The notes: generated from the letters alone by a model not told the origin. Counted from the first letter of the stretch, positions 1 through 20,784 are shown. The stretch: DNA of 20,784 nt from a virus (IMGVR_UViG_2585427760_000005), one strand, 5' to 3'. Numbers and translations: made by a program.

Positions 1-245
1 CGGAAAATCGTGTTGAGGCCAACGCCCATAATGCGGGCGGTTGCCCGGCATCCAACGCCATTCATGGCCATATCAATGATTTTCTGGTGCGTACCGGGTT
101 GAGAAGCGGTGTAAGTGAACTGCAGTTGCCATGTTTTACGGCAGTGAGAGCAGAGATAGCGCTGATGTCCGGCAGTGCTTTTGCCGTTACGCACCACCCC
201 GTCAGTAGCTGAACAGGAGGGACAGCTGATAGAAACAGAAGCCAC
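1..245 (-). CDS. insA: IS1 InsA (transposition regulator), GTG start at 245-243, 3' end lies outside the window
   Basis: Minus-strand frame from the GTG at 243-245 reads (M)[22 protein letters not shown]...[11 protein letters not shown], the InsA sequence. The track ORF 62..274 is in a different frame and is not InsA. Confidence 0.8.
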
Positions 246-300
246 TGGAGCACCTCAAAAACACCATCATACACTAAATCAGTAAGTTGGCAGCATCACC
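1..300 (-). mobile_element. IS1 insertion sequence, left end (partial, truncated by window start); terminal inverted repeat ends at 300
   Basis: Reverse complement of 1-300 reads GGTGATGCTGCCAACTTACTGATTTAGTGTATGATGGTGTTTTTGAGGTGCTCCAGTGGCTTCTG..., which matches the IS1 left inverted repeat and insA region as I recall it, with one substitution noticed. Confidence 0.9.
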
Positions 301-526
301 AATTACGGGTGTTAGATTTGAAACGGCAGGATGTACGAAATGCTATAGCTGTAGCTGAAAATGCGGAAACGTTATTCAGTAGTGGGCTTGCCAATGACTA
401 TTAAGATCCTAAGATAAATTGAATATAAAATGGCCTTTTATAAATTGAAAGGCCAGAGTTATAAAGAATGTTTTTATATACTGATAAGCGGTTCCACTAG
501 TTAACTTAAATAAGTAGGTGATGGCT

Positions 527-2065
527 ATGAATTTAGGATTTTTTTTTGGTGCTGGTGCAGAAATTGGTTATGGTTTACCAAGTGGAGGCAAATTTGCCAT
601 TGATCTTTTTAGACAAGATCCAAGTCAGTATAAAACTGAGCTCCGCCAACAACTGCGATTAGTGGATTCACGCTCACCTTACGCCAATGATTGGCTACCT
701 CAGGGGTATGCTGATAAAAGCATTTATGCTTTTGGACGTAACGAGTTTTCCAGTATTATTGAATCATCTATCGAATATAAACGTGAAGAAATAATTCGCC
801 GTCTAAATCGTTTTGATCAAGAGTGTGATGATGCCCTATTAACTCTAGGAATTGATAAGGCCATATTAGAAAATTTATTTTCAGAGTTAACAGGACATGT
901 CATTGGTGAGCGTCTGTATACACATGATATTCGTCTTAACGAGTTACTAGCCAGAGATGTTAGGTTATTCGAGTCTGAATATTACTCTGCTATGTTGGAC
1001 GTAGTACGAGAATCAGATAACAATGATGATTTAAAAAGGTACGTCATATCATTTTTACAATTATTGGTCGGTGCACACGGACAATCTCTTGTTCAACGCC
1101 TAAACCAAGAGTTATTTGAGGCTGCACCGGATGATTTACCCATCTTCGATGATATTACCGGTATGTTCCGTCTGGAGTTTAATCGCATTGGTTCGACAGC
1201 TTTGGAACTATTGCTGGAAGAAAATAGAAATTTCAATATTGATGAGGATGCAACAGCTCTTACACTTTTCTGTGCTATAGCCCAAAAAGTATTAGAGAAT
1301 CTGTTCACTACAGTACTCGACTACCAGAAATTGATAGATGACCATTTCCGATATCTCTTCTCACCTTCCACAGAATGGGCTAAATTTACTCGGATGGTTA
1401 TTTTCCTCAAGATCGCACGCGATTATATTAGTTCCCAGGCACCATCTATCGAAGATCTTCCCGATCATGGCTATTATCATGACTTAGCTACATTTGATGG
1501 TGATCTAACAATTTCAGCCATTGGTACGGCTAATTATAACAGCCTTCTGGCAGAGGTTTTCCGTGGTATGAATATAGAATTACCACAAATTATTCACCTG
1601 AACGGCAGTGTACACGACTATTATAACCCTTATAAAAATGCGGTTATTACTTGTGAAAATCCAGATAACGTAGACCAACGTCAGATTCATGTTCCATTCA
1701 TGCTGACGCAAAGCGGTCTTAAGCCTTTAACATCAGTAACTATGTCAAGACGATACGTTAGTCTTTTTGATGCTTATGCTGAATCTGATGCTATTGTTGT
1801 TGTAGGTTTTGGATTTAATAAAGATGATAGCCATATTAATGGACTTTTCCGTGAACTGGTCGAAAATAAAGGACGGAAATTAATTCTTATTTCGAGGCGT
1901 GTGGATGGAAGTGTTGAAGAACAGAAACGGCGGTTGCGAAACAAACTGCGTATTTCGCATGAGTTTAACCATTTGCTAATAGTAATTCCAGTAGATGATC
2001 TCACAAGGTGTCAAGGTGACCGACTATGGTTAGAGCAAGTTGTTGATACTTTGAACGAGGGATAA
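527..2065 (+). CDS. Hypothetical 512-aa protein with SIR2-like (sirtuin-fold, NAD-binding) signature motifs; candidate single-gene defense NADase
   Basis: Long ORF. AGGTG Shine-Dalgarno at 515-519 favours the ATG at 527 over the track start at 518. N-terminal FFFGAGAEIGYGLPSG resembles the SIR2/ThsA GAGxS...G.P motif, and C-terminal VVVGFGFNKDDSHINGLF resembles the SIR2_2 G[FY]S[FL]xD motif. The gene is AT-rich compared with the prophage genes. Function is inferred from motifs only. Confidence 0.45.
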   Translation: MNLGFFFGAGAEIGYGLPSGGKFAIDLFRQDPSQYKTELRQQLRLVDSRSPYANDWLPQGYADKSIYAFGRNEFSSIIESSIEYKREEIIRRLNRFDQECDDALLTLGIDKAILENLFSELTGHVIGERLYTHDIRLNELLARDVRLFESEYYSAMLDVVRESDNNDDLKRYVISFLQLLVGAHGQSLVQRLNQELFEAAPDDLPIFDDITGMFRLEFNRIGSTALELLLEENRNFNIDEDATALTLFCAIAQKVLENLFTTVLDYQKLIDDHFRYLFSPSTEWAKFTRMVIFLKIARDYISSQAPSIEDLPDHGYYHDLATFDGDLTISAIGTANYNSLLAEVFRGMNIELPQIIHLNGSVHDYYNPYKNAVITCENPDNVDQRQIHVPFMLTQSGLKPLTSVTMSRRYVSLFDAYAESDAIVVVGFGFNKDDSHINGLFRELVENKGRKLILISRRVDGSVEEQKRRLRNKLRISHEFNHLLIVIPVDDLTRCQGDRLWLEQVVDTLNEG

Positions 2066-2116
2066 AGCAGCTGATGATGGTGCTATAACCATTATGGTTT
2101 CTATTAATACTCGCCA

Positions 2117-2139
2117 GCCCTTATCTCTCTGATAAGGGC
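2117..2139. terminator. Hairpin between convergent genes (9-bp stem GCCCTTATC/GATAAGGGC, 5-nt loop); putative bidirectional terminator
   Basis: Perfect inverted repeat lying between the 3' ends of the 527..2065 (+) and 2155..2778 (-) genes. No clear T-tract. Confidence 0.4.
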
Positions 2140-2154
2140 CCTAATTAATGCTAG

Positions 2155-2778
2155 TTAATTATTACTACACCCAAACGATCTATAACCGTCATCAAAGTTC
2201 TTGCTTTTCACTTTGGTGAGATAATCAATTCGATTCAGTAAATCGTCGGGATAAATATCATTAAGAATATCATCACGATTCAGGGTATATTTACCATTAG
2301 AAGGATACTGTACTAGGTGCTGTCCCTCTTCGGGAGTTATACTTAATGCGCTGCACCATGCCGAGGTGATCATAGTTCTTAACGTATCTTCATCAAGATT
2401 GAAATCCCCTAAGTGGTAGTAAGCATCCTTGTTCAGAAACAGAAATACGTGAAAATGACGCTTACCATTCTGGGTAAATTCCCTCACCCACGCATAGCGG
2501 AGCGTATTCGGGTGTACCCGTTTACCTTCTTTACGCTTGCGCTGTTCATCTGCTGCCAGTTTGGCTTTCAGTGAATTGGTAAATCTTGATATAGATCCTG
2601 AATCAGTATTAGCGATACAGGAAATAGTATCACCATTATCCAGCATAACCGGGTCATGCAGATCCACCCGTATTGCCAGTGTACGTCCGTGTTCTTTAAC
2701 AGATTTTGTAATAACATCGATAATCCTTTCTTTGTATGATTTAACATGACTGCCATACTCGCTATCGTAGATATTCAT
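2155..2778 (-). CDS. YagK/YfjJ-family protein (CP4-type prophage-island protein of unknown function)
   Basis: 207-aa ORF with a GGGGTG RBS 8 nt upstream. It sits downstream of the alpA/yfjI-like genes as in E. coli CP4-57, and its size matches YagK-like members. Family assignment is by synteny and recollection. Confidence 0.55.
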   Translation of the reverse strand: MNIYDSEYGSHVKSYKERIIDVITKSVKEHGRTLAIRVDLHDPVMLDNGDTISCIANTDSGSISRFTNSLKAKLAADEQRKRKEGKRVHPNTLRYAWVREFTQNGKRHFHVFLFLNKDAYYHLGDFNLDEDTLRTMITSAWCSALSITPEEGQHLVQYPSNGKYTLNRDDILNDIYPDDLLNRIDYLTKVKSKNFDDGYRSFGCSNN

Positions 2779-3002
2779 AATAATTCACCCCTCGATGGAT
2801 AACAGTCATCGCATTACTGGCTATGGCCTACTAGTGATATATATACAGGCATGGTTAATTGCAATATAATAACTATCCGACACTGAATTTTAGAAAAATA
2901 GTAGCCACAGCCTACGATGACTGATTGAAAGTTACTCTTTAATTAGTTGTAATGAAGATAGGTTAATAAAACAATTATTGCGTCCTATCTTTGTTCTGTT
3001 CG

Positions 3003-4415
3003 TTATATAAGAATATCAACAGGTTGTATGAAAATGGTTTTCCCTATCTTCTCCGCCCGTATTTTCTTTTGCGAATAAAGTGTACTGAGAAGCTCATTCG
3101 CTTTGCTCCGATTCCTGAACCGGTTCGGACCATATTGCAAGATGGTTGTCTTCCTGATATATGGCACCACACACCGGTAGCAATAATCTTTTATCCACGA
3201 ATAAAGTTCATCTGCTTCTGAACTAACCAACAGCAACGTCTGGGGTTTAGAGAAAATTCTCACATACTCATCCACATACCAGGCGCTTATCTCTACTGCG
3301 GCTTCTACGGCACTGAGGGGTATATCCCCTTCATCACCATTAAATTTATGCAGCAGAGCGGCAATCCTTGCCATATTTTCCGCCATTTTAGAGGCGTAAT
3401 CCTTAAAGCCAGACAGGAAGCCAATCAACCCCATTTCTGACTCGACCTTGTTATAAAATTCGATCCAGTTCTTTTCGGCTTCTGCAGAGAAACGTAGGCA
3501 CTGACGCGCATTTTCATCATTTCTGACAATGCTCTCGTTAACGATCTCCATCAATCGTTTATGAAATACCGGTAGATGCTCGCTTGATATAACCGGGCTG
3601 GTAATTTGTCTGTAACCCTGTGTTGAACTAGGCTGACACATCAAACACCGCGCGAAGAATCCGATCCCTTTCGCTGTATCGCCTTTACGCTCCAGATACC
3701 CTTTTTTGAACACATCAGGCTGAACCATCAACGACAGTGTCATTCTGGCGTCTTTGATTAATTTATCTGGCTCGCTTTTTCTTTCCACAGTAAACATTGC
3801 GCCATCCCACATTTTATTGATGAAAGGCAGTTCATTCAGCGCATAGCCGTTAAAAATGGTACCAGCTTCATCAGACATAAGCCCGATGGACCGCCAACAA
3901 CCACTGAGATAGTCTTTTATCGCCGCTGGTGTGGCATCATTGAATATCTGCCTGAACCTGACCGGTGCTTTCGGGTTCGCCGACAGCAGCGTTTTCAGCC
4001 GTTCATTCGTTGTGGAGTGATCTTTGTTACGGCGAATATCTGATTTCAGTTTTGATATCAGGGCTTTCTTTTCAATGTTAAAAGTCGTTTCCTCATTCCG
4101 CCAGATAATTAAATCTTGGGTATATTTTTCAAAGCATGCTTCTTCCAGTTGATACAATGGCTTCATTAGCAGTTTGTCCACCGTGCTTTTGCGTTCACCA
4201 GAATCCGCCAGTGTCAGTAAAAAAAGTGATACTGGGCTGCGCAGATTATTCAGTCGGCACACATCAATCCGGTTCTGGCAGGCAAGCGAAATAACCCCCA
4301 ACACCGATGCAGCAATCAAAGCCTGGGGTGCCTGCGTATGCTGTTCCACTTCATAAACCGCATTTCTGATGATCTGCGGGAAGACATGTACAGGGAAAGG
4401 ACGACCACACGACAT
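3003..4415 (-). CDS. yfjI: YfjI-like DUF3987-domain protein (primase/replication-associated protein of integrative islands)
   Basis: 470-aa ORF with a GAGAGG RBS, immediately downstream of alpA on the same strand. Size and position match E. coli YfjI (469 aa) of CP4-57. Confidence 0.65.
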   Translation of the reverse strand: MSCGRPFPVHVFPQIIRNAVYEVEQHTQAPQALIAASVLGVISLACQNRIDVCRLNNLRSPVSLFLLTLADSGERKSTVDKLLMKPLYQLEEACFEKYTQDLIIWRNEETTFNIEKKALISKLKSDIRRNKDHSTTNERLKTLLSANPKAPVRFRQIFNDATPAAIKDYLSGCWRSIGLMSDEAGTIFNGYALNELPFINKMWDGAMFTVERKSEPDKLIKDARMTLSLMVQPDVFKKGYLERKGDTAKGIGFFARCLMCQPSSTQGYRQITSPVISSEHLPVFHKRLMEIVNESIVRNDENARQCLRFSAEAEKNWIEFYNKVESEMGLIGFLSGFKDYASKMAENMARIAALLHKFNGDEGDIPLSAVEAAVEISAWYVDEYVRIFSKPQTLLLVSSEADELYSWIKDYCYRCVVPYIRKTTILQYGPNRFRNRSKANELLSTLYSQKKIRAEKIGKTIFIQPVDILI

Positions 4416-4545
4416 AGATACCTCTCATTCTATTAATTTAATAAATAATTCAGCGAAATGGCTATTCTGCTATTAATAGCGGAAATAGCAGGATGACTAC
4501 CGACAATCCGATGACAGCAATTGAGTATGAATTCATGTAGCATCC

Positions 4546-4758
4546 TCAAATAAGTTTGCTGCGTTGCGATAGCCATTCTTCAATCTCTGATTCAACCCAT
4601 CCAACAGATTTCACTCCGAGCATTCGCTTTTTGGGGAAGGAAGCATCGTAACGTGGTGATTTGGGGTTCAACCAATCGTAGATTGTTGCTCGTGCCATAC
4701 CAGTTTTTTGGATAACAGCAGGTAAGCGGAGTATCCTAACGGTTGATGGATTATTCAT
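4546..4758 (-). CDS. alpA: AlpA-family transcriptional regulator / excisionase-like small DNA-binding protein
   Basis: 70-aa product MNNPSTVRILRLPAVIQKTGMARATIYDWLNPKSPRYDASFPKKRMLGVKSVGWVESEIEEWL... is near-identical in pattern to E. coli AlpA (70 aa) as I recall it. AGAGG RBS upstream. Confidence 0.9.
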   Translation of the reverse strand: MNNPSTVRILRLPAVIQKTGMARATIYDWLNPKSPRYDASFPKKRMLGVKSVGWVESEIEEWLSQRSKLI

Positions 4759-4883
4759 GCTTGATTGCCTCTTATTAGTTCATTTTGGTTGTAGAAAGAT
4801 TAGCGGCAAGCATCAATGCAAAAAATCCGTGTACCAAAAAAACATTTTTTACAACACTTAACTAATTGATATTTGGTGTATTT

Positions 4884-5762
4884 ATGTTGTCAGCGATTGA
4901 GTTTTGCGAAGAAATTAGTCAAAAATCGGATTGGCTTGCTGGGCATATGGTCGAATGTGATTGGGACATATATGTTGATCTGCTCAGCGAAAGGTATCCC
5001 GTGATACAGAAGGAACTAAGCGAGATGCGAGATCAATTCTGGAATTCTGATAAGGTAGGAACACGTGTGATTTTGTACAGTGATCCATCTCGTAAGGAGT
5101 ATAAATATTGTACTGTTGACGGAGTGGAGCAATTAAAAGAAGAATATACAGAAGTATATGATCCAGCTCAGGAATGCTGGAAACAGTTAAAATCACGTAT
5201 TTTCAGGGAAACGTTTTGTCATCTTATTCAGGATGATTTTTTAATTAATGATGTGTTTAAGTCACATCTATTTTTTGCCTCAATGTCTTATCAATGGGCA
5301 AAATCAGTTATGTCGGAGAATGAATGTGTCGCTATTAAAGCGTTCATTAAGTCAGCTGAATTATTTGATAGATGTATTGGTATGTCATGGTTTCATGTTT
5401 CTGTATGTACCCAAAAAAAATTATCACATGTTAGAGCTAAGGCCGGAAAACAAGGTGGGAACAGTAAATCAGAAGTATATCGAATAATTCAAGATAAGCT
5501 TGTTTATTTGATCAATAACTCCGTACCTGAAGGTGGGTGGAAAAGTAAAGCAGCTGCGGTGAATGACCTCATTGACCCCTTATGGAAATTTGTCGAAGAG
5601 TCAAATTTTGAAATTAATAATCAAAGTAAAAAATATCGGATATCAACAATGAGCCCTGATGCATTGGCAGATACCATTATAAAAAACTGGTCAAGAAATA
5701 TTGAGAGTATCAAATTGGCTTTCGATAATACGGTTACTAGAAAAAAGAAAACCAAAGGGTAA
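4884..5762 (+). CDS. Hypothetical protein in the yfjH position (between integrase and alpA, divergent from alpA); possible island regulator
   Basis: ORF of about 293 aa from the ATG at 4884 (the track starts at a TTG at 4866). AT-rich with no recognisable motif. Position is equivalent to yfjH in CP4-57 and to the repressor slot of PICI-like islands. Confidence 0.5.
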   Translation: MLSAIEFCEEISQKSDWLAGHMVECDWDIYVDLLSERYPVIQKELSEMRDQFWNSDKVGTRVILYSDPSRKEYKYCTVDGVEQLKEEYTEVYDPAQECWKQLKSRIFRETFCHLIQDDFLINDVFKSHLFFASMSYQWAKSVMSENECVAIKAFIKSAELFDRCIGMSWFHVSVCTQKKLSHVRAKAGKQGGNSKSEVYRIIQDKLVYLINNSVPEGGWKSKAAAVNDLIDPLWKFVEESNFEINNQSKKYRISTMSPDALADTIIKNWSRNIESIKLAFDNTVTRKKKTKG

Positions 5763-5820
5763 AATTCCGTATTACCTATAGGTGAGTTATCAGCACCCAT
5801 AATGGGTGCTGATAAAGGAT

Positions 5821-7062
5821 TCATCCTACAAGACGTATTCCCCTAACCCCACTATTCACGATACTGCCGCTATCTGCTGCTTTAACAAAATCAGCCCACC
5901 ACTGCATCATCGGTCGTCGTTGCTCAAGATAGTCACTTCGATTGTAAGCGCGACGTACCTCATTCTTATCTACATGAGCAAGTGCAGCCTCAATAACATC
6001 AGGCGGAAATCCTTCCTCATTGAGTGCCGTACTGGCAATAGAACGTAAGCCGTGTGAAACGAGTACGCCTCCTAAACCAGCACGCTTAAGGGCTGCATTT
6101 ACTGTCTGGCTGTTCATCGGCTGGGTAGGCTTAATGCGACTGGGAAAGATAAATTCTCGACCACCGCTGAGAGACTTCATTATTTCCAGAATAGCGAGAG
6201 CTCCATCAGATAATGGAACCGTATGCTCCCGATTCATCTTCATTCGAGCAGCTGGAATTTTCCATTCGCTAGCATCGAAATCGATCTCATCCCATCGAGC
6301 CTCAGCAGCTTCGGCAGGGCGGGTGATGGTGAGAAGCTGCCACATGAACAGGCATCGTGTGGACAGGCTGATACTTGCCGTACGCATAGTCTGCATTAGC
6401 TGTGGAAGTTGACCTGGGTGGATGCTTGGCATGTTTTTCTTTTGCGGTTTCTCGAATGCTTTCCCGATGTTTACGCTGGGAACCGCATCAATCAGGCCTG
6501 TGTTCTGCGCATAAATCATGACTTCGTTAATACGCTGACAAAGGCGGCGGACTGTCTCTAATGCACCTCTGGCCTGAACCGGATGAACTGCTTTAACCAA
6601 AGTATGAGCCTTAATCTCAGTGACACTGATATCACCGATTGCCGGGAGAACATCCCTCTCAAGCGAGCGCCAGATATCGTCGGCATAGTCCTCTGTTACG
6701 CTGGCTTTCTTCACATTCCACCAACGCTCGGCAACTAACCGGAAAGTGTTGGTTTTGGCCTCTTGAGAATTTCTCACCTGTTCTTTCTGATGTTCCTGAG
6801 GATCAATGTCTTTCGCCAACAAAGCTCGAGATTCAGCTCTGAGTTTACGCGCATCAGAAAGGGAGACGGCTGGATAGGCTCCGAAGCTCTGCTTGGTTCG
6901 CTGCTTGGTCAGAGGTCGATAGTAACGGAACTGCCAGAGCTTACTACCGCTGGACTTGATTAGCAGAGTAAGCCCGTCACCATCATACAGCTGGTAATCG
7001 GCATCTTTAGGTTTGGCGGCTTTGATTTCCGTATCGGTTAACGGCTTGGTTTTTCTTGCCAT
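5821..7062 (-). CDS. intA: Tyrosine integrase, P4/CP4-57 IntA type (DUF4102 N-terminus plus phage-integrase catalytic domain)
   Basis: 413 aa from MARKTKPLTDTEIKAAKPKD, with a GGAG RBS about 8 nt upstream of the ATG at 7062. The C-terminal region has the R...HxxR...Y catalytic pattern (HGLRSIAST...AHVD...RRAY). Lies next to the ssrA att fragment as intA does in K-12. The track start at 7098 falls inside an upstream hairpin and is less likely. Confidence 0.85.
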   Translation of the reverse strand: MARKTKPLTDTEIKAAKPKDADYQLYDGDGLTLLIKSSGSKLWQFRYYRPLTKQRTKQSFGAYPAVSLSDARKLRAESRALLAKDIDPQEHQKEQVRNSQEAKTNTFRLVAERWWNVKKASVTEDYADDIWRSLERDVLPAIGDISVTEIKAHTLVKAVHPVQARGALETVRRLCQRINEVMIYAQNTGLIDAVPSVNIGKAFEKPQKKNMPSIHPGQLPQLMQTMRTASISLSTRCLFMWQLLTITRPAEAAEARWDEIDFDASEWKIPAARMKMNREHTVPLSDGALAILEIMKSLSGGREFIFPSRIKPTQPMNSQTVNAALKRAGLGGVLVSHGLRSIASTALNEEGFPPDVIEAALAHVDKNEVRRAYNRSDYLEQRRPMMQWWADFVKAADSGSIVNSGVRGIRLVG

Positions 7063-7185
7063 GGGGAGTCTCCATGCGTTTAGGCCCAACGAAAACAATA
7101 GAGCTTTTCGTTGGGCCTATCAATGGGCCTAAAAGGTTCGGATTTAATTAGTTCTCTTCGGACTTCGCGGGACAAATTCAGGGCA

Positions 7186-7219
7186 CAAAAAAGCCCGCAG
7201 GGCTTGCGCCGTGCGGGCT
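7186..7219 (-). terminator. Rho-independent terminator downstream of the ssrA 3' end (8-bp GC-rich stem plus T-tract on the minus strand)
   Basis: Stem AGCCCGCA (7192-7199) pairs with TGCGGGCT (7212-7219). On the minus strand it is followed by TTTTT (complement of 7186-7191). Confidence 0.6.
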
Positions 7220-7265
7220 CTTAGGACTTCATCGGATGACTCTGGTAATCACCGATGGAGAATTT

Positions 7266-7310
7266 TGGTGGAGCTGGCGGGAGTTGAACCCGCGTCCGAA
7301 ATTCCTACAT
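7266..7310 (-). other. ssrA: 45-bp fragment identical to the 3' end of ssrA (tmRNA); attachment-site core duplicate, not a complete tmRNA gene
   Basis: Minus-strand sequence ATGTAGGAATTTCGGACGCGGGTTCAACTCCCGCCAGCTCCACCA matches the tmRNA 3' end (T-arm and CCA). Sequence 5' of it (beyond 7310) has no tmRNA similarity. Confidence 0.8.
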
Positions 7311-7426
7311 ACCATTTTTATACTAATAAAAGCATACATTTACTTTTAAAATCATCACCTTATTGTTTTTTGTGTTTGTCGGGTTTTATGTGATTTTAAG
7401 TCCTTGCCGCCAAAATGCCGCCATTA

Positions 7427-8618
7427 TTACTTATCCTCGATGGCGTCATACTCAAGCAAGTTATCCATACACTTCTCGAGTTTGTAGAAGTCGGTGAGGG
7501 GATAGAGGTGAACAATACTATCGTCAAAATTCTTGATCCCTGACAGGCGCTCAGTGCGTCTCAAAAACCTTGACGCTGACTTTACTTTGTCTCCCTCATC
7601 CGGCTCGCATGTGTATTCTAGTGTTTTGAGTACTTGCCAAGATACGGGAGGAGTTAGCTTAAACATTTTAATTAATTTTGGACAAAAATCCTTTGAGATA
7701 GTTTGTTGGTAAGTAACTTTTGGTGGGAGTACAACGTTGATTGACTTGTCTCCATCATTTGTTTTAACCATTTTAGTTGATCTGTAAGCGATACCAACAA
7801 TGTTAGAATTTCCTCGGCGGCTGATCCATTGCATTAATAAATTAGGGATGATGTATTCCTGAGTAAACGATGTGCTGCTATTTTTTTTTTCTAAAGTTAC
7901 AAGCATAAATTAAAGGCATCAAACAAATATATGACATTTTTGTAAGATATGGCATTTCGTCGTCATTAACTATGCCATAAAATCGTGAGTATAGAATTTC
8001 GGAAGTGAAGTCTAATATTTTAGAATCCTTTTCATTTGATGAGTAAGAGGATATATATAATTTATCAAAGTCTGGCTTATCCATTTCCAGCCAGCAGACA
8101 TACAAGGAAGAGCCAAGATATAAGCAGGGTAAGCCTGCAACAGAGTATCTTTGCGCATTGACTAGATGCCGCATAGAGAAAGGAATATGAAACATCTCTT
8201 TTCTATCTTTTATAGATGAGTCGGATTTTCTGACCCGGAAAAGAGGCTTGGATTCGTTGCATATCTTATTAAGTGGCGTGGATATGTGGTGAATATAACG
8301 AAATGTTGCATTGTCAGAAAATGTACTGTCAAAAATGTCATACGCTGATTTTATGTCACCAGATAAAAATTTTTCCAAGGAAAGTACTATGCCAAAATAT
8401 ATCTCACTTATTTTTTCTAAACGTCGGCCAATTCTCTTGGATAATTCATTGTCATTGTTTTCAGCATAGTCATTTATAATGTTGAAGTAGATTTGACATT
8501 TATTCTTGAAATCACTGATTATGTCGGACTCTACCGTAAATGGTAAGTTTAATCTTTTTTCTTTGACTGTAAGTGAAAATATTTTATTTAAGCCGTCAGA
8601 TAAACTCTCGCTTCCCAT
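7427..8618 (-). pseudogene. AT-rich gene with RES-domain-like motif (candidate NAD-targeting toxin/defense effector), split into 246-aa and 159-aa ORFs by a +1 frameshift in an A10 homopolymer (T10 at 7881-7890 on the + strand)
   Basis: ORFs 7878..8618 and 7427..7906 overlap by 29 nt in adjacent frames. ORF1 ends ...NFRKKK* inside the A10 run, and a run of A9 would read ...RKKNSSTSF... straight into ORF2 for a roughly 400-aa product. The motif FRVRKSD...RYSVAGLPCLYLGSSLYVCWLEM resembles the RES-domain core. An AAGGA RBS overlaps the stop codon of the upstream integrase. Confidence 0.45.
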
Positions 8619-8627
8619 TTTTTATCC

Positions 8628-9650
8628 TTACGAATAGTTTAATGAATGGAGTGGGTTCTTTGTCACCGCATCCTCAAGATGATCTGGTGCAAAATGGGCA
8701 TATATCATCGTCATTTTTATATCTGCATGGCCTAGGATATCGCGCAGCACAAGGATGTTTCCACCGTTCATCATAAAGTGGCTGGCGAAAGTATGTCGCA
8801 GTACGTGTGTGCATTGGCCCTCAGGTAAATCGATGCCTGCCCGTTTTACCGCACGCTCAAAGGCTTTTCTGCATGGCGTGAATAACTTCCCTCGATTCTT
8901 TGGTAGTTCGTCATACAGAGCCTGCGATATAGGTACGGTCCGGTTTTTCTTACCTTTGGTTTTGGTGTACGTGATTCGGTATTTTGATAACTGATGGCCC
9001 TGCAGGTTTTCGGCTTCACTCCAGCGGGCGCCGGTCGCTAAGCAAATTTTTGCAATCATCAGCAGGCTGGGGCTTTGAGAATTGGCGCAGGCATCCAGCA
9101 GGCGCTTAATTTCTTCCGGAGCAAGGAACGCCAGTTCACCTTCTGCGATCTTGAATGTTGGCAGTCCGGCGAGCGGGTTGGGTGCGGACCAGTGGCCCAG
9201 CTTTTTCAGCGTGCCAAAAACTGATGATAGGTTTCGCTGTTCCAGGTTTACCGTGCGGGGCTTAACCGGTGACATAAGCACGCCATCTTCATTTTTGACC
9301 TCACCTTTTAGGCGCGCTTCACGGTATTTAGTAAAGTCTCCAGCAGTCAGCTCTGAGGCAATGGGATCACCCAGTCCATTACAAATAATGCTGAGTTTCG
9401 CCATCAGGCGCTTAGGGTCCGCAAGAGTCTGCCCGTAAAGTGAATGCCATTGTTGAATCACTTCTGACAACTGACGCCTATCATCCTTTTCACCTAACCA
9501 TGGCTTTTTGTTCACTTCATCCATTGTGAAGTTTTCAAATGCTATAGCTTCGCCTTTCGTCGCAAATTGCTTGCGTACGCGTTTGCCATCGCGCCCGCTA
9601 GGGTAGCACTCGCACAACCATTTTCCGTTTGGCTGTTTTCTTATAGTCAT
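8628..9650 (-). CDS. int: Tyrosine integrase, P2/186-family phage type
   Basis: 340-aa product. N-terminus MTIRKQPNGKWLCECYPSGRDGKRVRKQFATKGEAIAFE and C-terminal ...ATGARWSEA...HVLRHTFASHFMMNGGNILVLRDILGHADIKMTMIYAHF follow the P2 Int pattern as recalled (P2 Int is 337 aa). Confidence 0.85.
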   Translation of the reverse strand: MTIRKQPNGKWLCECYPSGRDGKRVRKQFATKGEAIAFENFTMDEVNKKPWLGEKDDRRQLSEVIQQWHSLYGQTLADPKRLMAKLSIICNGLGDPIASELTAGDFTKYREARLKGEVKNEDGVLMSPVKPRTVNLEQRNLSSVFGTLKKLGHWSAPNPLAGLPTFKIAEGELAFLAPEEIKRLLDACANSQSPSLLMIAKICLATGARWSEAENLQGHQLSKYRITYTKTKGKKNRTVPISQALYDELPKNRGKLFTPCRKAFERAVKRAGIDLPEGQCTHVLRHTFASHFMMNGGNILVLRDILGHADIKMTMIYAHFAPDHLEDAVTKNPLHSLNYS

Positions 9651-9652
9651 GT

Positions 9653-10285
9653 TTAGAGGCTCTTGATCACTTTTACAGCACGTCCGATAGCTTCAATATC
9701 ATCTACTGAGCATTCAAACGAAGATTCATCCTGATGGACCGCTAATTTGTTTCCTGGAAGCCGTGTTAATTTCACGATGCTTTTAACCCCATCAATATCA
9801 ACGAGCCATAGTCCATTTGTAATCTGTTTCAGTGATTGATCGACTACATAACTTTCATGAGCATTGTTGACGAATAAACAGTGAACAGGTTCATTCGGGA
9901 GAATGCTGTGATCGAGGTGAATATCCTCATTATCAGTTAAGCAGCCATTTTCTAGCGTTACTTGCTTGATCGATGGCGCGACAAGCTTTGCAAGAGGTCG
10001 AATTGTAGGTGAGGTCTCATTTTGAGGTTTTTTTACAGCCTCGTTTTGAGCGTACATCTCACCATGGCCAGTAGCCAACCACAGTAAAGAAACCCCCGTT
10101 TCGAGCGCGCACTGAATTACCCAGTCAGCAGGGAAGCTATCACGTAACAGTCTGTTTGACATAGTGCTTTTTGAAACGCCAAGCTGCTCACTTAGAGCCT
10201 GCTTTGTCTTAAGCCCATAAGCCTTTTGCAGCCGATCGATAGCTTCTCTACCCCCTGAATCGGCACCCATTGAAATACTCGCCAT
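9653..10285 (-). CDS. cI: Phage CI-type immunity repressor (186 CI-like, HTH N-terminal domain)
   Basis: A GGAG RBS 7 nt upstream supports a start at 10285 (MASISMGADSGG...). The segment AYGLKTKQALSEQLGVSKSTMSNRL...CALETGVSLLWLATGHGE is HTH-like and resembles 186 CI. Located between int and a divergent apl-like gene. The track start at 10375 would run through the operator region. Confidence 0.7.
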   Translation of the reverse strand: MASISMGADSGGREAIDRLQKAYGLKTKQALSEQLGVSKSTMSNRLLRDSFPADWVIQCALETGVSLLWLATGHGEMYAQNEAVKKPQNETSPTIRPLAKLVAPSIKQVTLENGCLTDNEDIHLDHSILPNEPVHCLFVNNAHESYVVDQSLKQITNGLWLVDIDGVKSIVKLTRLPGNKLAVHQDESSFECSVDDIEAIGRAVKVIKSL

Positions 10286-10406
10286 TGAAAAACTCCGTTT
10301 GACAACCTTGAATCGGGATCGTAATGTTGCGTTGACTCTTGAATTGAGGTCTTGAGAGTCGACATAAAACGACATAAAACGAATCTAAACCGAGAGATAC
10401 TGCACT
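10286..10406. promoter_or_regulatory. Lysis-lysogeny switch region between divergent cI and apl-like genes; contains an exact 10-bp tandem direct repeat GACATAAAAC x2 (10361-10380)
   Basis: Intergenic region between the divergent repressor and early operon, with the tandem repeat visible in sequence. Promoter and operator positions were not resolved. Confidence 0.4.
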
Positions 10407-10652
10407 ATGAGCACTGAGATTTCAATTCGTGTACCAAAAGTGATAGCGACGCCAGCCGAATTTGCTGAATGGGAAGGCTATTCCCGTGGTTCGGTTTATC
10501 AGATGATTCATAACGGTAAACTGGCTAACTACATTGAAAAGAAAGAAAAAAACAAAGGCCGTGTATTCATCCTTTACCTTAAGTACAAAAAGGAGCAAGC
10601 GCGTAAAAACATGGACCAATCAGCCTTTAACTACAACGTAGTTGTCGGTTAG
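10407..10652 (+). CDS. Apl/Cox-like small excisionase-regulator (first gene of the early lytic operon)
   Basis: 81-aa ORF divergent from cI, basic C-terminal half, in the position of 186 apl / P2 cox. Confidence 0.55.
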   Translation: MSTEISIRVPKVIATPAEFAEWEGYSRGSVYQMIHNGKLANYIEKKEKNKGRVFILYLKYKKEQARKNMDQSAFNYNVVVG

Positions 10653-10687
10653 TAAGTTCAATTATGAGAACTTTCTAAGGGGGTTAC

Positions 10688-11197
10688 ATGTTTGATTATA
10701 AGATTTCCAAACATCCGCATTTTGACGACGCTTGCCGCGCTTTTGCGTTGCGTCACAACATGGCGAAGCTGGCAACCAGCGCCGGAATGAACGTCCAGAC
10801 TCTGCGCAACAAGTTGAACCCGGACCAGCCGCACCAACTGACGCCGCCGGAAATCTGGCTGCTGACTGATATCACTGAGGATTCCACGCTGGTTGATGGT
10901 TTCCTGGCCCAGATTCACTGCCTGCCGTGTGTGCCGCTGAATGAAGTGGCAAAAGAAAAAATGCCGCAGTACGTCCTCAAAGCCACTGCCGAGATCGGCC
11001 GTGTTGCTGCAAGTGCGGTTTCAGGTGTTCAACTGAACGCGACCACCCGCCGCCAGGTTGTTGAAAGCGTCAATTCTGTTACCCGTCTAATGGCTCTTAC
11101 CGCTATTTCACTGCAGGCGCGGTTACAAGCTAACCCGGCAATGGCCAGTGTTGTCGATACCGTGACGGGACTTGGCTCTTCGTTTGGGCTGAGCTGA
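10688..11197 (+). CDS. cII: CII-like regulatory protein (phage 186 CII type)
   Basis: 169-aa ORF with an AAGGGGG RBS, immediately after the apl-like gene. 186 CII is 169 aa as I recall. Call rests on synteny and size. Confidence 0.6.
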   Translation: MFDYKISKHPHFDDACRAFALRHNMAKLATSAGMNVQTLRNKLNPDQPHQLTPPEIWLLTDITEDSTLVDGFLAQIHCLPCVPLNEVAKEKMPQYVLKATAEIGRVAASAVSGVQLNATTRRQVVESVNSVTRLMALTAISLQARLQANPAMASVVDTVTGLGSSFGLS

Positions 11198-11198
11198 G

Positions 11199-11405
11199 GT
11201 GTATATGCTGAACAATGAACCATCTTTTGCATCACTGCTTGTTAAGCAAAGCCCGGCCCCGCACTACGGTCACGGCTGGATCTCTGGAACGGATGGCAAG
11301 CGCTGGCATCCATGCCGCTCGCAGGATGCGCTGCTGGCTGACCTGTCCACATCAAAACAGGGGAAACCATGGCTATTGAAGGCGATGCTGCGACTGTTCC
11401 GCTAA
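11199..11405 (+). CDS. Hypothetical small early protein (fil/dhr region of 186-like phages)
   Basis: 68-aa ORF with a GAGGTG RBS. Confidence 0.45.
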   Translation: MYMLNNEPSFASLLVKQSPAPHYGHGWISGTDGKRWHPCRSQDALLADLSTSKQGKPWLLKAMLRLFR

Positions 11406-11710
11406 GTGCTGGCCTCCGCCTTAATGGGTTAAACCACATCGCGGAATTAAGGGCGAAAGTGTTTGGCTTAAATACTGATTCAGAACTAGGGCGCTTTATT
11501 AGCGATATGCGGGACCAACGGGATATTAACCATGAGCAGAATAAACGCGCACTAGCCGCAATATTCTTTATGGCAAAAATTCCGGCGGAACGTCATAGCG
11601 TCAATGTTAGTGAGCTGACGACTGACGAAAAGCGGGAGCTGATTAAAGCAATGAACCATTTCCGTACAGTGGTGAGCTTATTTCCAACTCGGCTAGCCAT
11701 GCCGAATTAA
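11369..11710 (+). CDS. Hypothetical early protein
   Basis: 113-aa ORF overlapping the previous ORF by 37 nt in another frame. Start is uncertain. Confidence 0.4.
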   Translation: MAIEGDAATVPLSAGLRLNGLNHIAELRAKVFGLNTDSELGRFISDMRDQRDINHEQNKRALAAIFFMAKIPAERHSVNVSELTTDEKRELIKAMNHFRTVVSLFPTRLAMPN

Positions 11711-11777
11711 CCAACCACAGAAATTAAAGGCGTAAACCCGCCGGGCATTCCTTTGCTCAAATTCAGGAGAACGAACG

Positions 11778-12011
11778 ATGCGAAATATTGAAACCCGAAT
11801 CACCAAAAGCGGCCCAGATGATGCTGGCCTTAACCAGCTGCTGACGGATGCGCGTATGGAAGAACGCCGCGCACGTGCTGCTGCAATGGCTGCCCGCCTC
11901 GATAGCCTGGCTAGCCGTATTACTTCCCGTCAGCTTAACCATGTTGAGGCGGCAGAGCTGCTGCGTGTCGCAGCTGAAAACATCCAGAACGAAGCGCAGG
12001 AGATCCACTGA
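11778..12011 (+). CDS. Hypothetical early protein (Ala/Arg-rich, probably helical)
   Basis: 77-aa ORF with an AGGAG RBS. Its stop overlaps the next start (TGATG). Confidence 0.5.
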   Translation: MRNIETRITKSGPDDAGLNQLLTDARMEERRARAAAMAARLDSLASRITSRQLNHVEAAELLRVAAENIQNEAQEIH

Positions 12012-12238
12012 TGGCTGATTCTATGGACCTTGTACAGCAGCGCGTTGAAGAAGAACGCCAGTGCCATATCCACCACGCCCGCAGCCGAAAGGCTGGGGCT
12101 TCTTCTCTTGAGTGCGAGAGCTGCGAAATTGTCATTCCGGCAGAACGCCGTGCTGCAGTTCCGGGCTGTGATCTTTGCGTAACCTGCCAGGAAATTGCAG
12201 AGCTGAAAGGCAAGCATTACGTAGGGGGTGCTGTATGA
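12011..12238 (+). CDS. TraR/DksA-family C4 zinc-finger protein
   Basis: 75-aa product with CxxC...CxxC (CESCEIVIPAERRAAVPGCDLCVTCQE), the pattern of phage TraR-like proteins. Confidence 0.6.
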   Translation: MADSMDLVQQRVEEERQCHIHHARSRKAGASSLECESCEIVIPAERRAAVPGCDLCVTCQEIAELKGKHYVGGAV

Positions 12239-12519
12239 CTACCGAGAAACTGACTAATCCGCTGACTGATAGCGAATTATCGCGACTGATTTGGGGCCTG
12301 AAAGCGGAAGGGTTTCACCCGCGCCTATTGGCTGGCTTAGTAGAGCTGCAGCAGCGCCGTCAGGCCAATGCAGAGATTGATATGGCACCAATAAAAATTC
12401 CTCCTGCCGTATTCGATTTGATTTATCAGGAATGCGAGGGGTTTGTAGATTGTCCAGCCAATCCTCAAGTGATTTGGGAAGCCTGCCGTGCAGCGATGCT
12501 GAAAGGCGGTGCTGAATGA
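12235..12519 (+). CDS. Hypothetical early protein
   Basis: ATG at 12235 overlaps the upstream stop (ATGA). About 94 aa. The track start at 12175 lies inside the previous gene. Confidence 0.5.
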
Positions 12520-12815
12520 ATATCAAAGCCCATACCTTAAAAATTGCACCGAAACACCTTAATGATGTTATGGCGGGGAAAAAAAAAGCTGAATTAAGAC
12601 GGGATGATGATCGCGGTTATAAAGCCGGTGATGTTCTTGTTTTGTGTGAATGGAAACATGGCAAATATACCGGGCGCGAATGGACGGCTGTAATCACTCA
12701 TATCCTGCCAGTTTGCGACGTTATTAATAATGTTGATGGCTGGGTGATGCTCTCTATTCGTTCACTGAATCCAATTGATGCAATGTTCTATATGCTTTCA
12801 GGAGGTGCTGCATGA
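12516..12815 (+). CDS. DUF3850/ASCH-like small protein
   Basis: 99-aa ORF, ATGA-coupled to its neighbours. The pattern [24 protein letters not shown]...GDVLVLCEW resembles DUF3850 (ASCH-fold) proteins. Confidence 0.45.
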
Positions 12816-13657
12816 GCACCATCCTGAAATGGGCTGGCAATAAAACTGCCATCATGCCGGAATTGAAAAAACATCTGCCAGCAGGCCAGCGCCTTGTTGA
12901 ACCTTTCGCGGGTTCGTGCGCTGTCATGATGGCGACAGACTATCCTCATTATCTTGTCGCAGATGTTAATCCTGATCTGATAAATCTGTATCAAGCAATT
13001 AAAGATGACGTTAACGGATTTGCTCACTTGGCTGAGCGGGTTTTTTCTAAGTTCACAACGGAAGAAGCCTATTATAAATGCCGTCAGTATTTTAATACTG
13101 CGCCTTTGGATTACATGGACAAGGCGGCTTATTTTCTTTTCCTTAATCGCCATTGTTATCGCGGGTTATGCCGTTATAACCAGCGCGGCCTGTTTAACGT
13201 CCCGTACGGTAATTACAAAAAACCTTATCTGCCCGTTAATGAAATACGTGCATTTGCCGAAAAGGCAAAGCGTGCCACCTTCATTTGCGCCAACTATGAG
13301 GAAACATTGGCAATGCTGCAGCCGGGGGATGTTATCTACTGCGACCCTCCGTATGACGGTACATTTTCCACTTACCACACTGACGGATTTACTGAGGATG
13401 ATCAGTATCATCTGGCGTCTATCCTTGAACGTCGCTCATCAGAAGGTCATCCGGTCATCGTGTCCAATAGCGACACATCCCTGACCCGTTCACTTTATCG
13501 TAATTTTACCCACCATCGCATCACTGCAAAACGCAGCATGGGCGTGGCTGCCGGTGAAGGTAAATCTGCAGCTGAAATCATCGCGACGAAATCAGCTGTT
13601 TGCTTCGGTGTAGATCTTGCCAGCTGTACAAACCGTTATGTTGAGGTGCGCGTATGA
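12812..13657 (+). CDS. dam: DNA adenine methyltransferase, Dam family (orphan, phage-encoded)
   Basis: 281 aa with [48 protein letters not shown] and the catalytic DPPY motif ([10 protein letters not shown]), collinear with E. coli Dam. Confidence 0.88.
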
Positions 13658-14973
13658 ACCATTCCGCAGCAGTAATTGTGCCTACAGATATCAGTGTGAT
13701 GGTTCGTGAAATAGAGGTTTCATACAACCACTTTCTGAATGAATTTCGTATTCCAGCTGATCACAAAATTGTCGTTAACTTCTCTGCCGGAAAAGACAGC
13801 ACGACAACAGCGGCAATTGCACATCATCTTTTTGGTGATCGCGTACAAAACGTAATGGCTGATACAGACAATGAACATGAATTAACCGTCGACTTTGCGC
13901 GAAATATTCATCATCAAATTGGTTGTAAGCCTGTGCAGATAGTTAAGCGTATATACACCGAGGTTGAATTTGAACGTCGCCGTAAATCGCTTAATGAGCG
14001 CTGGTCAAAGCGTCAGGCGATCCGCATGGGCGCTTATCGTGGCGTAATTATGCCATCACTGGCGAGATCAGATACCAAATTTGGTCAGGAATGGCTACGT
14101 ACTGCTGAACGCTGGGGGATTCAGTTTGAAACGGCTCTGGAGGCTGCTCTTTCAGTCATGCACCCGACTGGTAATAGCTTTCTCGATGCCGCTCTGTTGC
14201 ACGGCAAATTCCCGATGATGCGCGATCGCTTTTGTACTGATGAACTCAAGATTCAAATCGCGTTCGATGCGGCAATAAAACCACTTCTTGATGATGGTGA
14301 GGTGGTCGTTCAGTGGTCTGGAGTGCGTGCAGATGAGTCCGACAAACGCGCCGGTTACGCAAGATTTGCACACGATGAACGCGATCCAAACTTTCTCTAT
14401 AACTTCCTGCCAATCCATAAATGGACGGCGGCTAATGTTTTCGCCTTACATAAATATTTCGGTATTAAACCAAACCCACTTTACCTGCAAGGCGCTGACC
14501 GTGTTGGCTGCATGAACTGTGTTTTATGTACCAAAGAAGAAATTGCGCAGACTGCAGCACGCTGGCCTGAGCATATCGAAAAACATCATGAGTGGGAGAA
14601 AAAAGTACGGCTGGCATCGCGCTGGGTTCACTGGATGAGCATCGGCACAGTTAGCCAGTCATGGATGCGTGCTCAGTTAGGCGTTAGAGATGTTATCCGG
14701 TTTGAACTCGATGAAGTGACGGGAGAGGAAGTAGCGCGACGTAGGCGCTATCCAGTCAATCTAGGCCAGAATGTGAAACTGTATGGACTGGAGCCAGATG
14801 TTCAGCACATCGACTGGTCAGGATTCTATGGTCCGCGTGGAAATATGGGGGCTCCGTCAGCGCTTGATGTTGTCGAATGGGCCAAGACTGGTCGTGGTGG
14901 CAAGGTCTACGACTTAGTCAAAGCCAGTATGGACACTTCAGTGTGCTCATCACGATATGGTCTTTGTGAATGA
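13654..14973 (+). CDS. PAPS-reductase-like (PP-loop ATP pyrophosphatase superfamily) protein, phage-encoded; possible DNA-modification enzyme
   Basis: 439 aa with the PP-loop motif [10 protein letters not shown] near the N-terminus and a cysteine cluster (CMNCVLC) later. ATGA-coupled to dam upstream and to gene A downstream. Confidence 0.65.
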
Positions 14974-17387
14974 GCTTTTATCCATGGAACGCGCCAAAAA
15001 AGGCGATAAATCCAAACACGGACCCGGCGGAAGTTGCGCCGGTGTCCGCGCTTTCAAACCTGATTACTCTGTATGCCGCTGATAATGAGCAGAACCAGCA
15101 GCGCCGGGAAGAAATGAGTGATGAGGTCTGGGAACGCTATTTTTATAACGAAGCCCGTGATCCAGTTCTGCGTGAAATGGAGCAGGACCGGCTGATCAGT
15201 GGTGCCAAAATGGCACGCGAGCAGCAGAGGTTTAACCCCGATCTGGTCATTCTGGCAGATGTAAGCGCCGAACCATCACACATCAGCAAACCTCTGCTTG
15301 AGCGCATTAAATATTTCCATAGTCTGGGCCGTCCACAGGCTTATTCCCGTTATCTGCGTGAAACCATCAAGCCATGCCTTGAACGGCTGGCGCGTGCGCG
15401 TGACAGCCAGGTGTCTGCTTCATTCCGATTCATGGCTAGCCATGAAGGGCTGGAAGGGCTGCTGGTTCTGCCTGAAATGAATCAGGATCAGGTCAAACGC
15501 CTATCCACGCTGGTTGCGGCTCATATGAGCATGTGTCTGGAAGCTGCCTGCGGTGATCTCTATTCCACTGACGAAGTGAAGCCGGAAGAAATCCGCCAGG
15601 CGTGGGAACAGGTTGCAGCGGAGGCGATGCGCCTTGATGTTATCCCGCCAGCGTTTGAGCGTCTGCGCCGTAAGAAACGCCGCCGCAAGCCTGTGCCATA
15701 TGAGCTTATTCCCGGTTCGCTGGCGCGTATGCTGTGCGCGGACTGGTGGTATCGCAAATTGTGGCAGATGCGCTGTGAATGGCGCGAGGAGCATCTGCGC
15801 GCGGTATGTCTGGTTAACAAAAAGGCATCGCCGTACGTTAGCTATGAGGCGGTGATCCATAAGCGTGAGCAGCGCCGCAAATCGCTGGAGTTTTTCCGTT
15901 CGCATGAACTGACCAATGAGCAGGGTGATACGCTGGATCTGGAAGATGTGGTAAACGCCAGCGCCAGCAACCCGGCCCATCGCCGTAACGAGATGATGGC
16001 CTGTGTGAAAGGGCTGGAGCTGATCGCGGAAATGCGCGGCGACTGTGCTGTATTTTACACCATCACTTGCCCGTCACGCTTCCACGCCACGCTCAACAAT
16101 GGCAGGCCAAATCCGAAATGGACCAGCGCCACAGTACGACAGAGCAGTGATTATCTGGTTGATACGTTCGCGGCTTTCCGTAAGGCCATGCATAAAGTCG
16201 GGTTGCGCTGGTACGGTGTGCGAGTGGCTGAGCCTCATCATGATGGCACTGTGCACTGGCACCTGCTGTGCTTTATGCGCAAGAAACACCGCAAAGCTAT
16301 CACGGAACTGCTGCGCAAGTTTGCCATTCGTGAGGATCGCGAGGAGCTGGGAAACAATACCGGGCCGCGCTTTAAGTCCGAGCTAATCAATCCGCGCAAA
16401 GGCACGCCAACCAGCTACATCGCTAAATACATCAGTAAGAATATTGATGGGCGCGGCCTGGCTAATGAAGTCAGCAAGGAAACCGGCAAATCATTACGCG
16501 ATAACGCGGAGAACGTGAACGCCTGGGCATCACTGCACCGCGTCCAGCAATTCCGCTTTTTCGGTATTCCAGGTCGCCAGGCTTACCGCGAGCTGCGCCT
16601 GCTGGCGGGCCAGGCTAAACGCGACCTTCCGCCATTAAAACCCGTTCCCGGGAAACCTGAATTGACGCCAGAGATTCTGGCGGCCCTTGCAAATGCGCGG
16701 CCTGTTATCGGCAATCCGCGTCTTGATGCTGTGCTGGCTGCGGCTGATGCCGGTTGCTTTGCCACTTACATCATGGCGCAGGGCGGCGTGCTGGTCCCTC
16801 GCAAACATCACCTGGTCAGAACGGCCTATGAGCTGAACGATGAGCCGAGCGCCTACGGCGATCATGGTATCCGTATTTATGGCGTCTGGTCCCCTATTCA
16901 GGAAGGGCGAATTTGTACGCACGCGGTGAAATGGAAAATGGTTCGTAAGGCCGTTGACGTTGACCTGCCGGAGGCGTCAGCCGACCAGGGCGCTTGCGCC
17001 CCTTGGACTCGTGGCAATAACTATCCCCTTGTGGAAAATCTGAACAATTCAGACGCTGAAACAGGGGGGAATACTCCAGATATAACCGTTATGGATGAGC
17101 AGGAACTGCAGGAGTATCTGCACGGCATGGGAAGAAAAGAGCTTAAAGAGCTAAACACCCGTTTACGCCTGGTAAAACCGAAGCGCCGCAAAGGATATAA
17201 ACAGGAAATTGACGGGCAACAGCGGCTGCAGCTGGGTTATGAGCTGCAGTCCAGGGGCTTTGATGGCAGTGACAACGAGATCGATTTGCTTCTGAGTGGC
17301 GGCAGTATTCCATCCGGGGCAGGGCTGCGCCTTTTTTACCGTAACCAGCGGCTGCAGGAAGATGATAAATGGCGTCAGTGGTATTGA
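14970..17387 (+). CDS. Replication initiation endonuclease (P2 gpA family, rolling-circle nickase)
   Basis: 805-aa ORF as the last gene of the coupled early operon. Contains the paired-tyrosine motif YIAKYISK (Y-x3-Y), typical of P2 A-type nickases. Size is comparable to P2 A (761 aa). Confidence 0.8.
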
Positions 17388-19079: not shown

Positions 19080-19268
19080 CATACGTCATGCAGTTGCATG
19101 AAAACCACTACACAAAGCGGGCAGGCGTGGCGGGGATACGAGCGCGCGCTGGCACTTTGGATGATCGCTTCACCTGTATGAATGACCACCTTGAAAACTT
19201 GATTGTTCTGGACTTAAGTATGTACTTTATATTCGGAATAATCCGAATTGCTGAAAAGGATTCATGTG

Positions 19269-20290: not shown

Positions 20291-20784
<494 letters not shown>

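Follow-up and report, generated by a model that had tools for sequence, protein, structure and literature searches.

Tandem arrays of genomic islands at ssrA, the gene for transfer-messenger RNA (tmRNA), are reportedly the subject of 'Traffic at the tmRNA gene', published by Williams in 2003. Here, we have analysed a stretch of 20,784 bp (IMGVR_UViG_2585427760_000005, in the following called the window) that is a whole draft contig (JOSR01000287.1, assembly GCA_000713815.1) and in which an island with the genes intA, alpA and yfjI is separated from a P2-family prophage by the last 45 nt of ssrA. The relative with which the island can best be compared is CP4-57 of E. coli K-12, whose start in the K-12 annotation lies 15 nt inside the ssrA end and whose distal repeat is CCGCCAGCCCACCA. 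A table in PMC10107115, which cites Williams 2003, lists at ssrA both islands with P4-type integrases (CP4-57, CP4So and the Vibrio pathogenicity island VPI) and phages with P2-type integrases (Fels-2 and SopE-phi). Tandem arrays located at genes for tRNA or tmRNA form a recognised class, with the tmRNA gene as the most enriched target (PMC4383910). In CP4So, AlpA is required for excision and induces it, and the excised circles are lost (PMC5148205); AlpA-driven excision and gradual loss of the circle have also been reported for the CP4-57/CP4So family as a whole (PMC10107115). Phage satellites have to be considered as well. The P4-like model of SatelliteFinder has seven components, and elements with int, alpA and a primase gene are graded there as 'Type C' of the phage-inducible chromosomal islands (PICIs), a grade that the authors have set aside as ambiguous (PMC10085698). 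The PICMIs (for phage-inducible chromosomal minimalist islands) are defined by int, alpA and a DUF3987/DUF5906 'prim' gene, and complete PICMIs have been found only in the Vibrionaceae, at fis (PMC10803314).

We regard it as highly probable (about 0.85) that the window holds an island of the CP4-57 type truncated by an insertion sequence (IS) and a later, unrelated prophage of the Fels-2/186-like kind at a shared ssrA hot spot, with no functional dependency between the two. The arrangement is of a kind that is already known: it combines traffic at the tmRNA gene with the turnover of defence cargo and with IS-mediated decay in islands and P2-like prophages. As in the tandem arrays described with Islander and TIGER, each element has its own integrase and a displaced fragment of the tmRNA gene marks the boundary; the contig has one such fragment, and we see no difference of substance.

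Two elements at the 3' end of ssrA

The island has the site and the architecture of K-12 CP4-57: at the 3' end of ssrA, the two have the terminator of ssrA and the leader of intA in common, the genes intA, yfjH (divergent), alpA, yfjI and yfjJ follow in the same order and orientation, and a slot for defence genes comes next. The integrase reading frame spans 5821-7098 on the minus strand, the real start being the ATG at 7062, and the resulting gene (5821..7062) matches NF007246 with 904 bits (cut-off 434); its product is 94% identical to K-12 IntA and 36% identical to P4 Int. The divergent yfjH-like gene (4884..5762, plus strand, alternative start at 4866; phrog_19089) encodes a protein with 59% identity to K-12 YfjH, the family being limited to the Enterobacterales. 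The alpA gene (4546..4758, minus strand; Pfam Phage_AlpA, 84 bits), whose product would act as excisionase and activator, is 90% identical to K-12 AlpA and 36% to P4 Vis/orf88 at the protein level. On the same strand lie yfjI (3003..4415; Pfam DUF3987 with 329 bits, phrog_2373 'DNA helicase' with 1e-114), coding for a P-loop helicase-type protein with 75% identity to K-12 YfjI, and yfjJ (2155..2778; Pfam YagK_YfjJ_C with 184 bits, REP_ORF2-G2P with 30.6 bits), coding for a HUH Rep-like protein of the YagK/YfjJ ('inovirus Gp2') family with 54% identity to K-12 YfjJ. The preliminary description of this DNA had placed an integrase gene, a divergent open reading frame (ORF), alpA and a DUF3987 gene at 4546-7310, and next to them a 186/P2-type prophage behind a 45-bp fragment of the ssrA 3' end. 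The gene set is present as described, the DUF3987 gene lying just outside that interval, and the adjoining prophage and the fragment are borne out by Pfam genes and by an exact match to K-12 ssrA, respectively.

The boundary between the two elements, at 7266..7310 on the minus strand, is the reverse complement of the final 45 nt of K-12 ssrA; the match is exact, and identity breaks at nt 45. Since only this fragment is present, neither ARAGORN nor Rfam calls a tmRNA in the window. The fragment continues into the native ssrA terminator and the intA leader (7099..7265, minus strand, with the terminator hairpin at 7205-7191), and about 200 nt downstream of the ssrA end are collinear with K-12. 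The 45 nt are the int-proximal attachment site (att) of the P2-like prophage, and their final ~15 nt would also hold the ssrA-proximal att of the island. Further att repeats and a full ssrA gene had been suggested as features to look for: the displaced 45-nt end is there, and the distal repeat of the island, which would read CCGCCAGC(T)CCACCA, is absent from 1-7265, where no second ssrA-end repeat occurs even with 3 mismatches per 15 nt. The corresponding island of strain MS 115-1 has no distal ssrA repeat either, and a direct-repeat search of the window returned chance pairs only and no extra att repeat. The suspicion that the two elements might use unrelated sites was not borne out: both are at the ssrA 3' end, with att cores that overlap and yet differ (about 14-15 nt for the island, 45 nt for the prophage), and their integrases belong to subfamilies that are not related to each other (145 residues align with 28% identity, E 6e-4). 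In NZ_CP148275.1 (L023, 4002-4178), RefSeq has annotated as a partial 'ssrA' 177 nt that include the displaced 45-nt fragment and extend into a cargo gene of the prophage; in feature tables, prophages of this kind thus have 'ssrA' listed at the incorrect end.

Each of the two elements is known in nearly identical form without the other. The island adjoins a lambdoid prophage in MS 115-1 (99.9% DNA identity) and another lambdoid prophage, with a lambda-type Int and an S24 repressor, in an IMG/VR contig (L018) that has the identical IS1 junction (99.99%). The prophage is present at 99.9% identity in a contig (L007) with the same 45-nt fragment and terminator and without intA, alpA and yfjI, and again at 99.9% in a second one (L008) in which intA is followed by unrelated genes. 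In CUWW06, an intact ssrA is located at the far end of a related 186-like prophage, the near end having only a lone intA with IS1, and other 186-like prophages at ssrA abut different islands with P4-type integrases. A search of 5426 complete E. coli genomes gave 684 in which intA is combined with the end of ssrA; among the matches listed, intA directly follows an intact ssrA in nearly all cases and only about 4 continue into this prophage end. The exact prophage junction of the window is found in no complete E. coli genome. As each element is found nearly unchanged with other partners, we can conclude that island and prophage assort independently, over a timescale with hardly any change in the island sequence. 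This observation, together with the att fragment of ssrA, supports one of the two explanations that had been proposed earlier, the insertion of one element after the other at a hot att site. It also has a more general consequence: since both this island and this prophage occur next to other elements as well, the adjacency of a P2-family prophage and the triad of int, alpA and helicase gene are insufficient to call a satellite.

The following order of events would account for the locus. An island of the CP4-57 family would have come first and inserted at the final ~15 nt of ssrA, bringing IntA, YfjH, AlpA, YfjI, YfjJ and the variable defence slot. By analogy with K-12 CP4-57 and Shewanella CP4So, IntA and AlpA would excise this island as a circle in an AlpA-dependent manner, and the circle would be gradually lost. 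A Fels-2/186-like temperate phage would have come second, recombining with the final 45 nt of ssrA by means of its own P2-type integrase. This phage would have supplied a replacement ssrA 3' end at the far junction, as is directly seen in CUWW06, and its insertion would have separated the functional gene from the original 45-nt end, from the ssrA terminator and from the island. The fact that this displaced end has remained contiguous with the native terminator and the island suggests that the phage entered an ssrA gene that already held the island. In this genome, IS1 has cut through the cargo cassette. Unlike in K-12 CP4-57, a P2-like prophage would now lie between the island and the functional ssrA. 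With the prophage in place, excision of the island would recombine within the displaced, non-functional fragment and leave the functional tmRNA gene unchanged; the insertion of the prophage would thus uncouple the effect described for K-12 CP4-57, in which excision switches ribosome rescue.

Several points weigh against such a pair of unconnected elements. First, our data cover the island of this strain up to IS1, where the contig ends. Second, the late, structural half of the prophage and its ssrA-proximal junction are outside the window, and our statements on them draw on CUWW06 and on the 108-kb contig behind L007. Third, the survey of co-occurrence is made up of listed BLAST hits that are not corrected for phylogeny. 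Fourth, the island has kept an intact-looking set of int, alpA, helicase and HUH Rep-like genes, with the triad that defines the PICMI satellites. Finally, a jumbo phage transduces related islands at the tmRNA gene of Pseudomonas, which carry intY and alpA together with RadC, a gene of the inovirus Gp2-like type and defence cargo (PMC12595487), and some phage-dependent mobility of the island family is therefore conceivable.

Satellite readings of the island core

The last two points lead to the reading that survives best after the one that we prefer, even though we consider it unlikely: the island might be minimalist and inducible by phages, in the manner of a PICMI or of a 'PICI Type C' element, in which the core of int, alpA and helicase gene, possibly with the Rep gene, senses some phage that need not be the neighbour. 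The island would then be excised, replicated and packaged by a headful or generalized mechanism without any genes for capsid remodelling. Such genes are not part of the PICMI definition, and more than 6000 'Type C' elements with int, alpA and primase have been left open as possible undescribed satellites. The transduction of the Pseudomonas islands fits in as well, as does the behaviour of yfjI and yfjJ: the two genes stay adjacent in elements with unrelated integrases (L014, L015, L019 and L022), which suggests that their products form a functional two-protein module for replication or processing.

The properties of the two proteins are compatible with this suggestion. YfjI has a conserved Walker-like motif, SGERKS(T), and the motif SDEAG; it has neither a primase domain nor similarity to P4 alpha. 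YfjJ has the HUH-type motif HxHxxL (HFHVFLF) and the motif YLTK, and the REP_ORF2-G2P family of Pfam is matched both by YfjJ and by P2 gpA. For one DUF3987 protein, biochemical work has demonstrated that it is a 5'-3' helicase (PMC11724360). Given these motifs, the helicase precedent and the joint occurrence of the two genes, it is reasonable to see a module of the replication type in the island core. Searches of YfjI, YfjJ and YfjH against solved structures yielded no sequence relatives, the matches to glutamate dehydrogenase being at chance level only.

Against a minimalist island stands, first of all, the distribution of the PICMIs. The island shares with them int, alpA and the DUF3987-type 'prim' gene as well as the small size and the defence cargo; unlike them it is inserted at ssrA rather than at fis, it belongs to the Enterobacteriaceae whereas complete PICMIs come from the Vibrionaceae, it has the divergent yfjH in place of the iolg-type gene that overlaps int, and there is no evidence of a helper phage for it. 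Moreover, the excised circles of CP4-57 and CP4So reportedly undergo gradual loss and no amplification, the copy in the window is cut by IS1 and its distal att was not detected, and we found no experiment on YfjI or YfjJ in the searchable literature. With respect to the enterobacterial PICIs, the island has int, alpA and a DUF3987 helicase gene without a primase domain, and by the published description it would rate as 'Type C' only.

It is tempting to speculate beyond this locus that the CP4-57 core in general might be a module for phage-responsive excision and rolling-circle replication, and that this family of 'cryptic prophages', which is very common in enterobacteria, might thus represent an undescribed class of minimalist hitchhikers that are carried by resident temperate phages, including P2-family phages that integrate at ssrA, without capsid-remodelling genes. 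We think that this is quite unlikely, and nothing links the core to the present neighbour. If it were indeed shown that phages induce the CP4-57 core and that the core replicates, the classification of a large group of 'cryptic prophages' would have to be revised.

The features by which P4-like satellites exploit their helpers were searched in the whole island (1-7310). For P4 alpha, epsilon (Ash), cI, Sid, Delta and Psu, neither blastp nor tblastn in all six frames gave a match (none at E<=1 beyond noise); among the P4 components, the island matches Int and Vis/orf88 only. Thus, in comparison with P4, the island shares the integrase subfamily and the regulator of the AlpA/Vis type, and it lacks the alpha primase-helicase, epsilon, sid, delta, psu and cos; its replication proteins, a DUF3987 helicase and a HUH Rep-like protein, are of a different kind. 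The cohesive-end sites (cos) of P2 and 186 do not occur in 1-7400 with up to 5 mismatches, and the cos of the neighbouring prophage is absent from the island with up to 6 mismatches. None of the island ORFs has a Pfam or PHROG match to a gene for packaging or capsid morphogenesis (terS, ppi, rpp or a capsid-size gene). The sequence TGT-N12-ACA, which we take to be the signature of Ogr/Delta-type late promoters, occurs once in the window, within yfjI, as compared to 4.9 occurrences expected by chance, and the intergenic regions of the island have none. As to YfjH, the product of the only island ORF without an assignment, its AF2 model (pLDDT 78.6, mostly helical) gave no informative match in a fold search and no viral protein of similar fold.

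That the island is derepressed by the adjacent P2-family prophage and packaged into its capsids is therefore very unlikely, even though its integrase is of the P4 type, its AlpA resembles P4 Vis, its helicase and Rep-like protein could replicate an excised circle and both elements lie at the same gene: five of the seven P4-like core components, the cos sites of P2, 186 and the neighbour and the Ogr/Delta-type motifs of the intergenic regions are missing, YfjH has no fold likeness to viral proteins, each element is known nearly identical without the other, and the island is truncated by IS1 with no distal att in the contig. This helper-satellite pair was the second explanation offered in the preliminary description, where the core had been likened to the modules of P4-like or PICI-like satellites. 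The likeness stands for the triad of int, alpA and DUF3987 genes; all P4 and PICI hijack features are missing, as are the genes for capsid redirection or packaging that one would expect in such a satellite. The class assignments as a P4-like satellite, as a PICI or as a true PICMI were each rejected because the island lacks features that define these classes.

With YfjI as query, tblastn against 50,697 phage records gave only 9 weak matches, and P4, which is present in the collection, was not among them. The small number of 'phage' records that encode a YfjI-like protein includes elements of about 12-13 kb without annotation, such as MT836114.1 (L005, 12.9 kb, from a human faecal virome) and records from Ralstonia; these could be satellites that have DUF3987 helicases, or small elements that are packaged.

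Cargo and truncation of the island

Both edges of the contig are formed by IS elements, IS1 on the left (1-300) and IS5 on the right (20291-20784). The IS1 end (1..300, minus strand) is at the same time the contig edge and the point at which the island is truncated on the left; it is 94.7% identical to the IS1 of MS 115-1, its terminal inverted repeat ends at 300, and in L009 InsA domains are called at this place. Unlike CP4-57, the island is therefore cut after ~7 kb, and neither the distal att repeat nor the module with antirestriction, RadC and toxin-antitoxin genes is present in the contig.

The slot that follows yfjJ is variable: it holds a SIR2-like gene in the window and abpAB in K-12. 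The cargo of the island is the remnant of a cassette for Type III restriction-modification with a SIR2-like gene, as opposed to abpAB and rnlAB in K-12 CP4-57. An intact version of the cassette is found in FCI51 (L003, 15375-21763), in a related island of the CP4-6 type at a tRNA-Asp gene, and consists of a Type III Mod gene (PADLOC MTase_III, 986 bits), a Res-like DEAD helicase gene and the SIR2-like gene. In the window, the first two genes, Mod and Res-like, have been removed or interrupted by IS1: about 100 bp of the helicase gene are left as a 3' stub (301..400, plus strand), with a match to the 3' end of genes annotated as DEAD/DEAH helicases. The SIR2-like gene follows at 518..2065 (plus strand). 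It had been proposed as candidate defence cargo, and the call is weak: Pfam SIR2_2 gives 22.4 bits, below the cut-off of 24.5, and the SIR2/Aga_SIR2 match of PADLOC has an E-value of ~3e-6. A Type III restriction-modification system and a SIR2-like protein appended to it may together constitute a composite system for defence, which would be worth examining.

Truncation has occurred more than once in this lineage of islands. In MS 115-1, an independent IS1 is located at the position that corresponds to 576 of the window, ~190 bp from ileY, and the island is a 7-kb remnant. For the strain studied here, the missing distal att and the cut by IS1 indicate that the island is probably fixed or decaying. 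It can be called a degraded CP4-57 remnant, as had been considered before, with respect to the missing packaging genes, the IS1 truncation and the lack of a distal att; such a label does not fit the replication functions, as the helicase and the HUH Rep-like gene are present.

The neighbouring Fels-2/186-like prophage

The DNA to the right of 7311 is the early half of a P2-family prophage of the 186/Fels-2 type. It is a mosaic with ~80% DNA identity to Fels-2, SEN8, RE2010 and relatives from Klebsiella and Yersinia, and it shares with the Felsduovirus-type prophages Fels-2 and SopE-phi the P2-type Int, the 186-type CI, Apl, CII, Fil, Dam, gpA, a cos-like site and integration at the ssrA 3' end. 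The genes for the P2/186-type integrase and the 186-type CI repressor lie at 8628..10375 on the minus strand (Pfam Int_N and Phage_integrase; Phage_CI_repr and Phage_CI_C). They are followed by the early operon at 10407..17387 on the plus strand, with the genes for Apl, CII, Fil, DUF5347, DUF2732, a TraR-like protein, ASCH/DUF3850, Dam, a DndC-like PAPS reductase and gpA; among the Pfam matches of the early genes are Phage_CP76 and Phage_GPA (434 bits).

An inferred cos site of the prophage, GGCGTGGCGGGGATACGAG, is located at 19124..19142 (plus strand); the same 19 nt with identical flanks are present at the equivalent position of the 186-like prophage of CUWW06. Its leading 13 nt are those of the 186 cos. 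The related prophage of CUWW06 has the capsid and terminase operon Q-L and the tail genes, which the 20.8-kb contig, ending in IS5, does not include.

In P2-like phages, the interval between gpA and the portal gene and that between int and att are hot spots for defence genes (PMC13586616). The prophage uses the same two cargo slots, as do the Fels-2/186-like phages; in contrast to the named phages of the Fels-2 type, it has cargo of its own, a 396-aa protein and an AAA_13/PDC-S06 ATPase, one gene being frameshifted and the other interrupted by IS5. In the att-int slot, a single gene for the 396-aa protein (7427..8618, minus strand) is frameshifted at a T10 run (7881-7890), so that each half of phrog_7835 is covered by an ORF of its own. 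The ORF is intact in four other contigs (L007, L008, L010 and L011), and the frameshift may reflect either a true mutation or an error in the sequencing. The proposal of a 'RES-like' toxin for 7427-8618 was rejected, since neither Pfam nor PADLOC gives a family match. Between cos and the expected portal gene lies the ATPase gene (19248..20290, plus strand; Pfam AAA_13; PADLOC PDC-S06 with 343 bits, profile positions 1-334 of 732), whose product has 777-779 aa in other contigs. Here it is truncated by IS5 (20291..20784, plus strand, 99.8% identical to IS5), whose terminal inverted repeat GGAAGGTGCGAATAAG begins at 20291 and which forms the right edge of the contig.

Directly upstream of gpA, at 12516-14973, the prophage encodes an ASCH/DUF3850 protein, a Dam-type methylase and a DndC-like protein of 439 aa with a PAPS-reductase domain, a group of genes that looks like a DNA-modification set.

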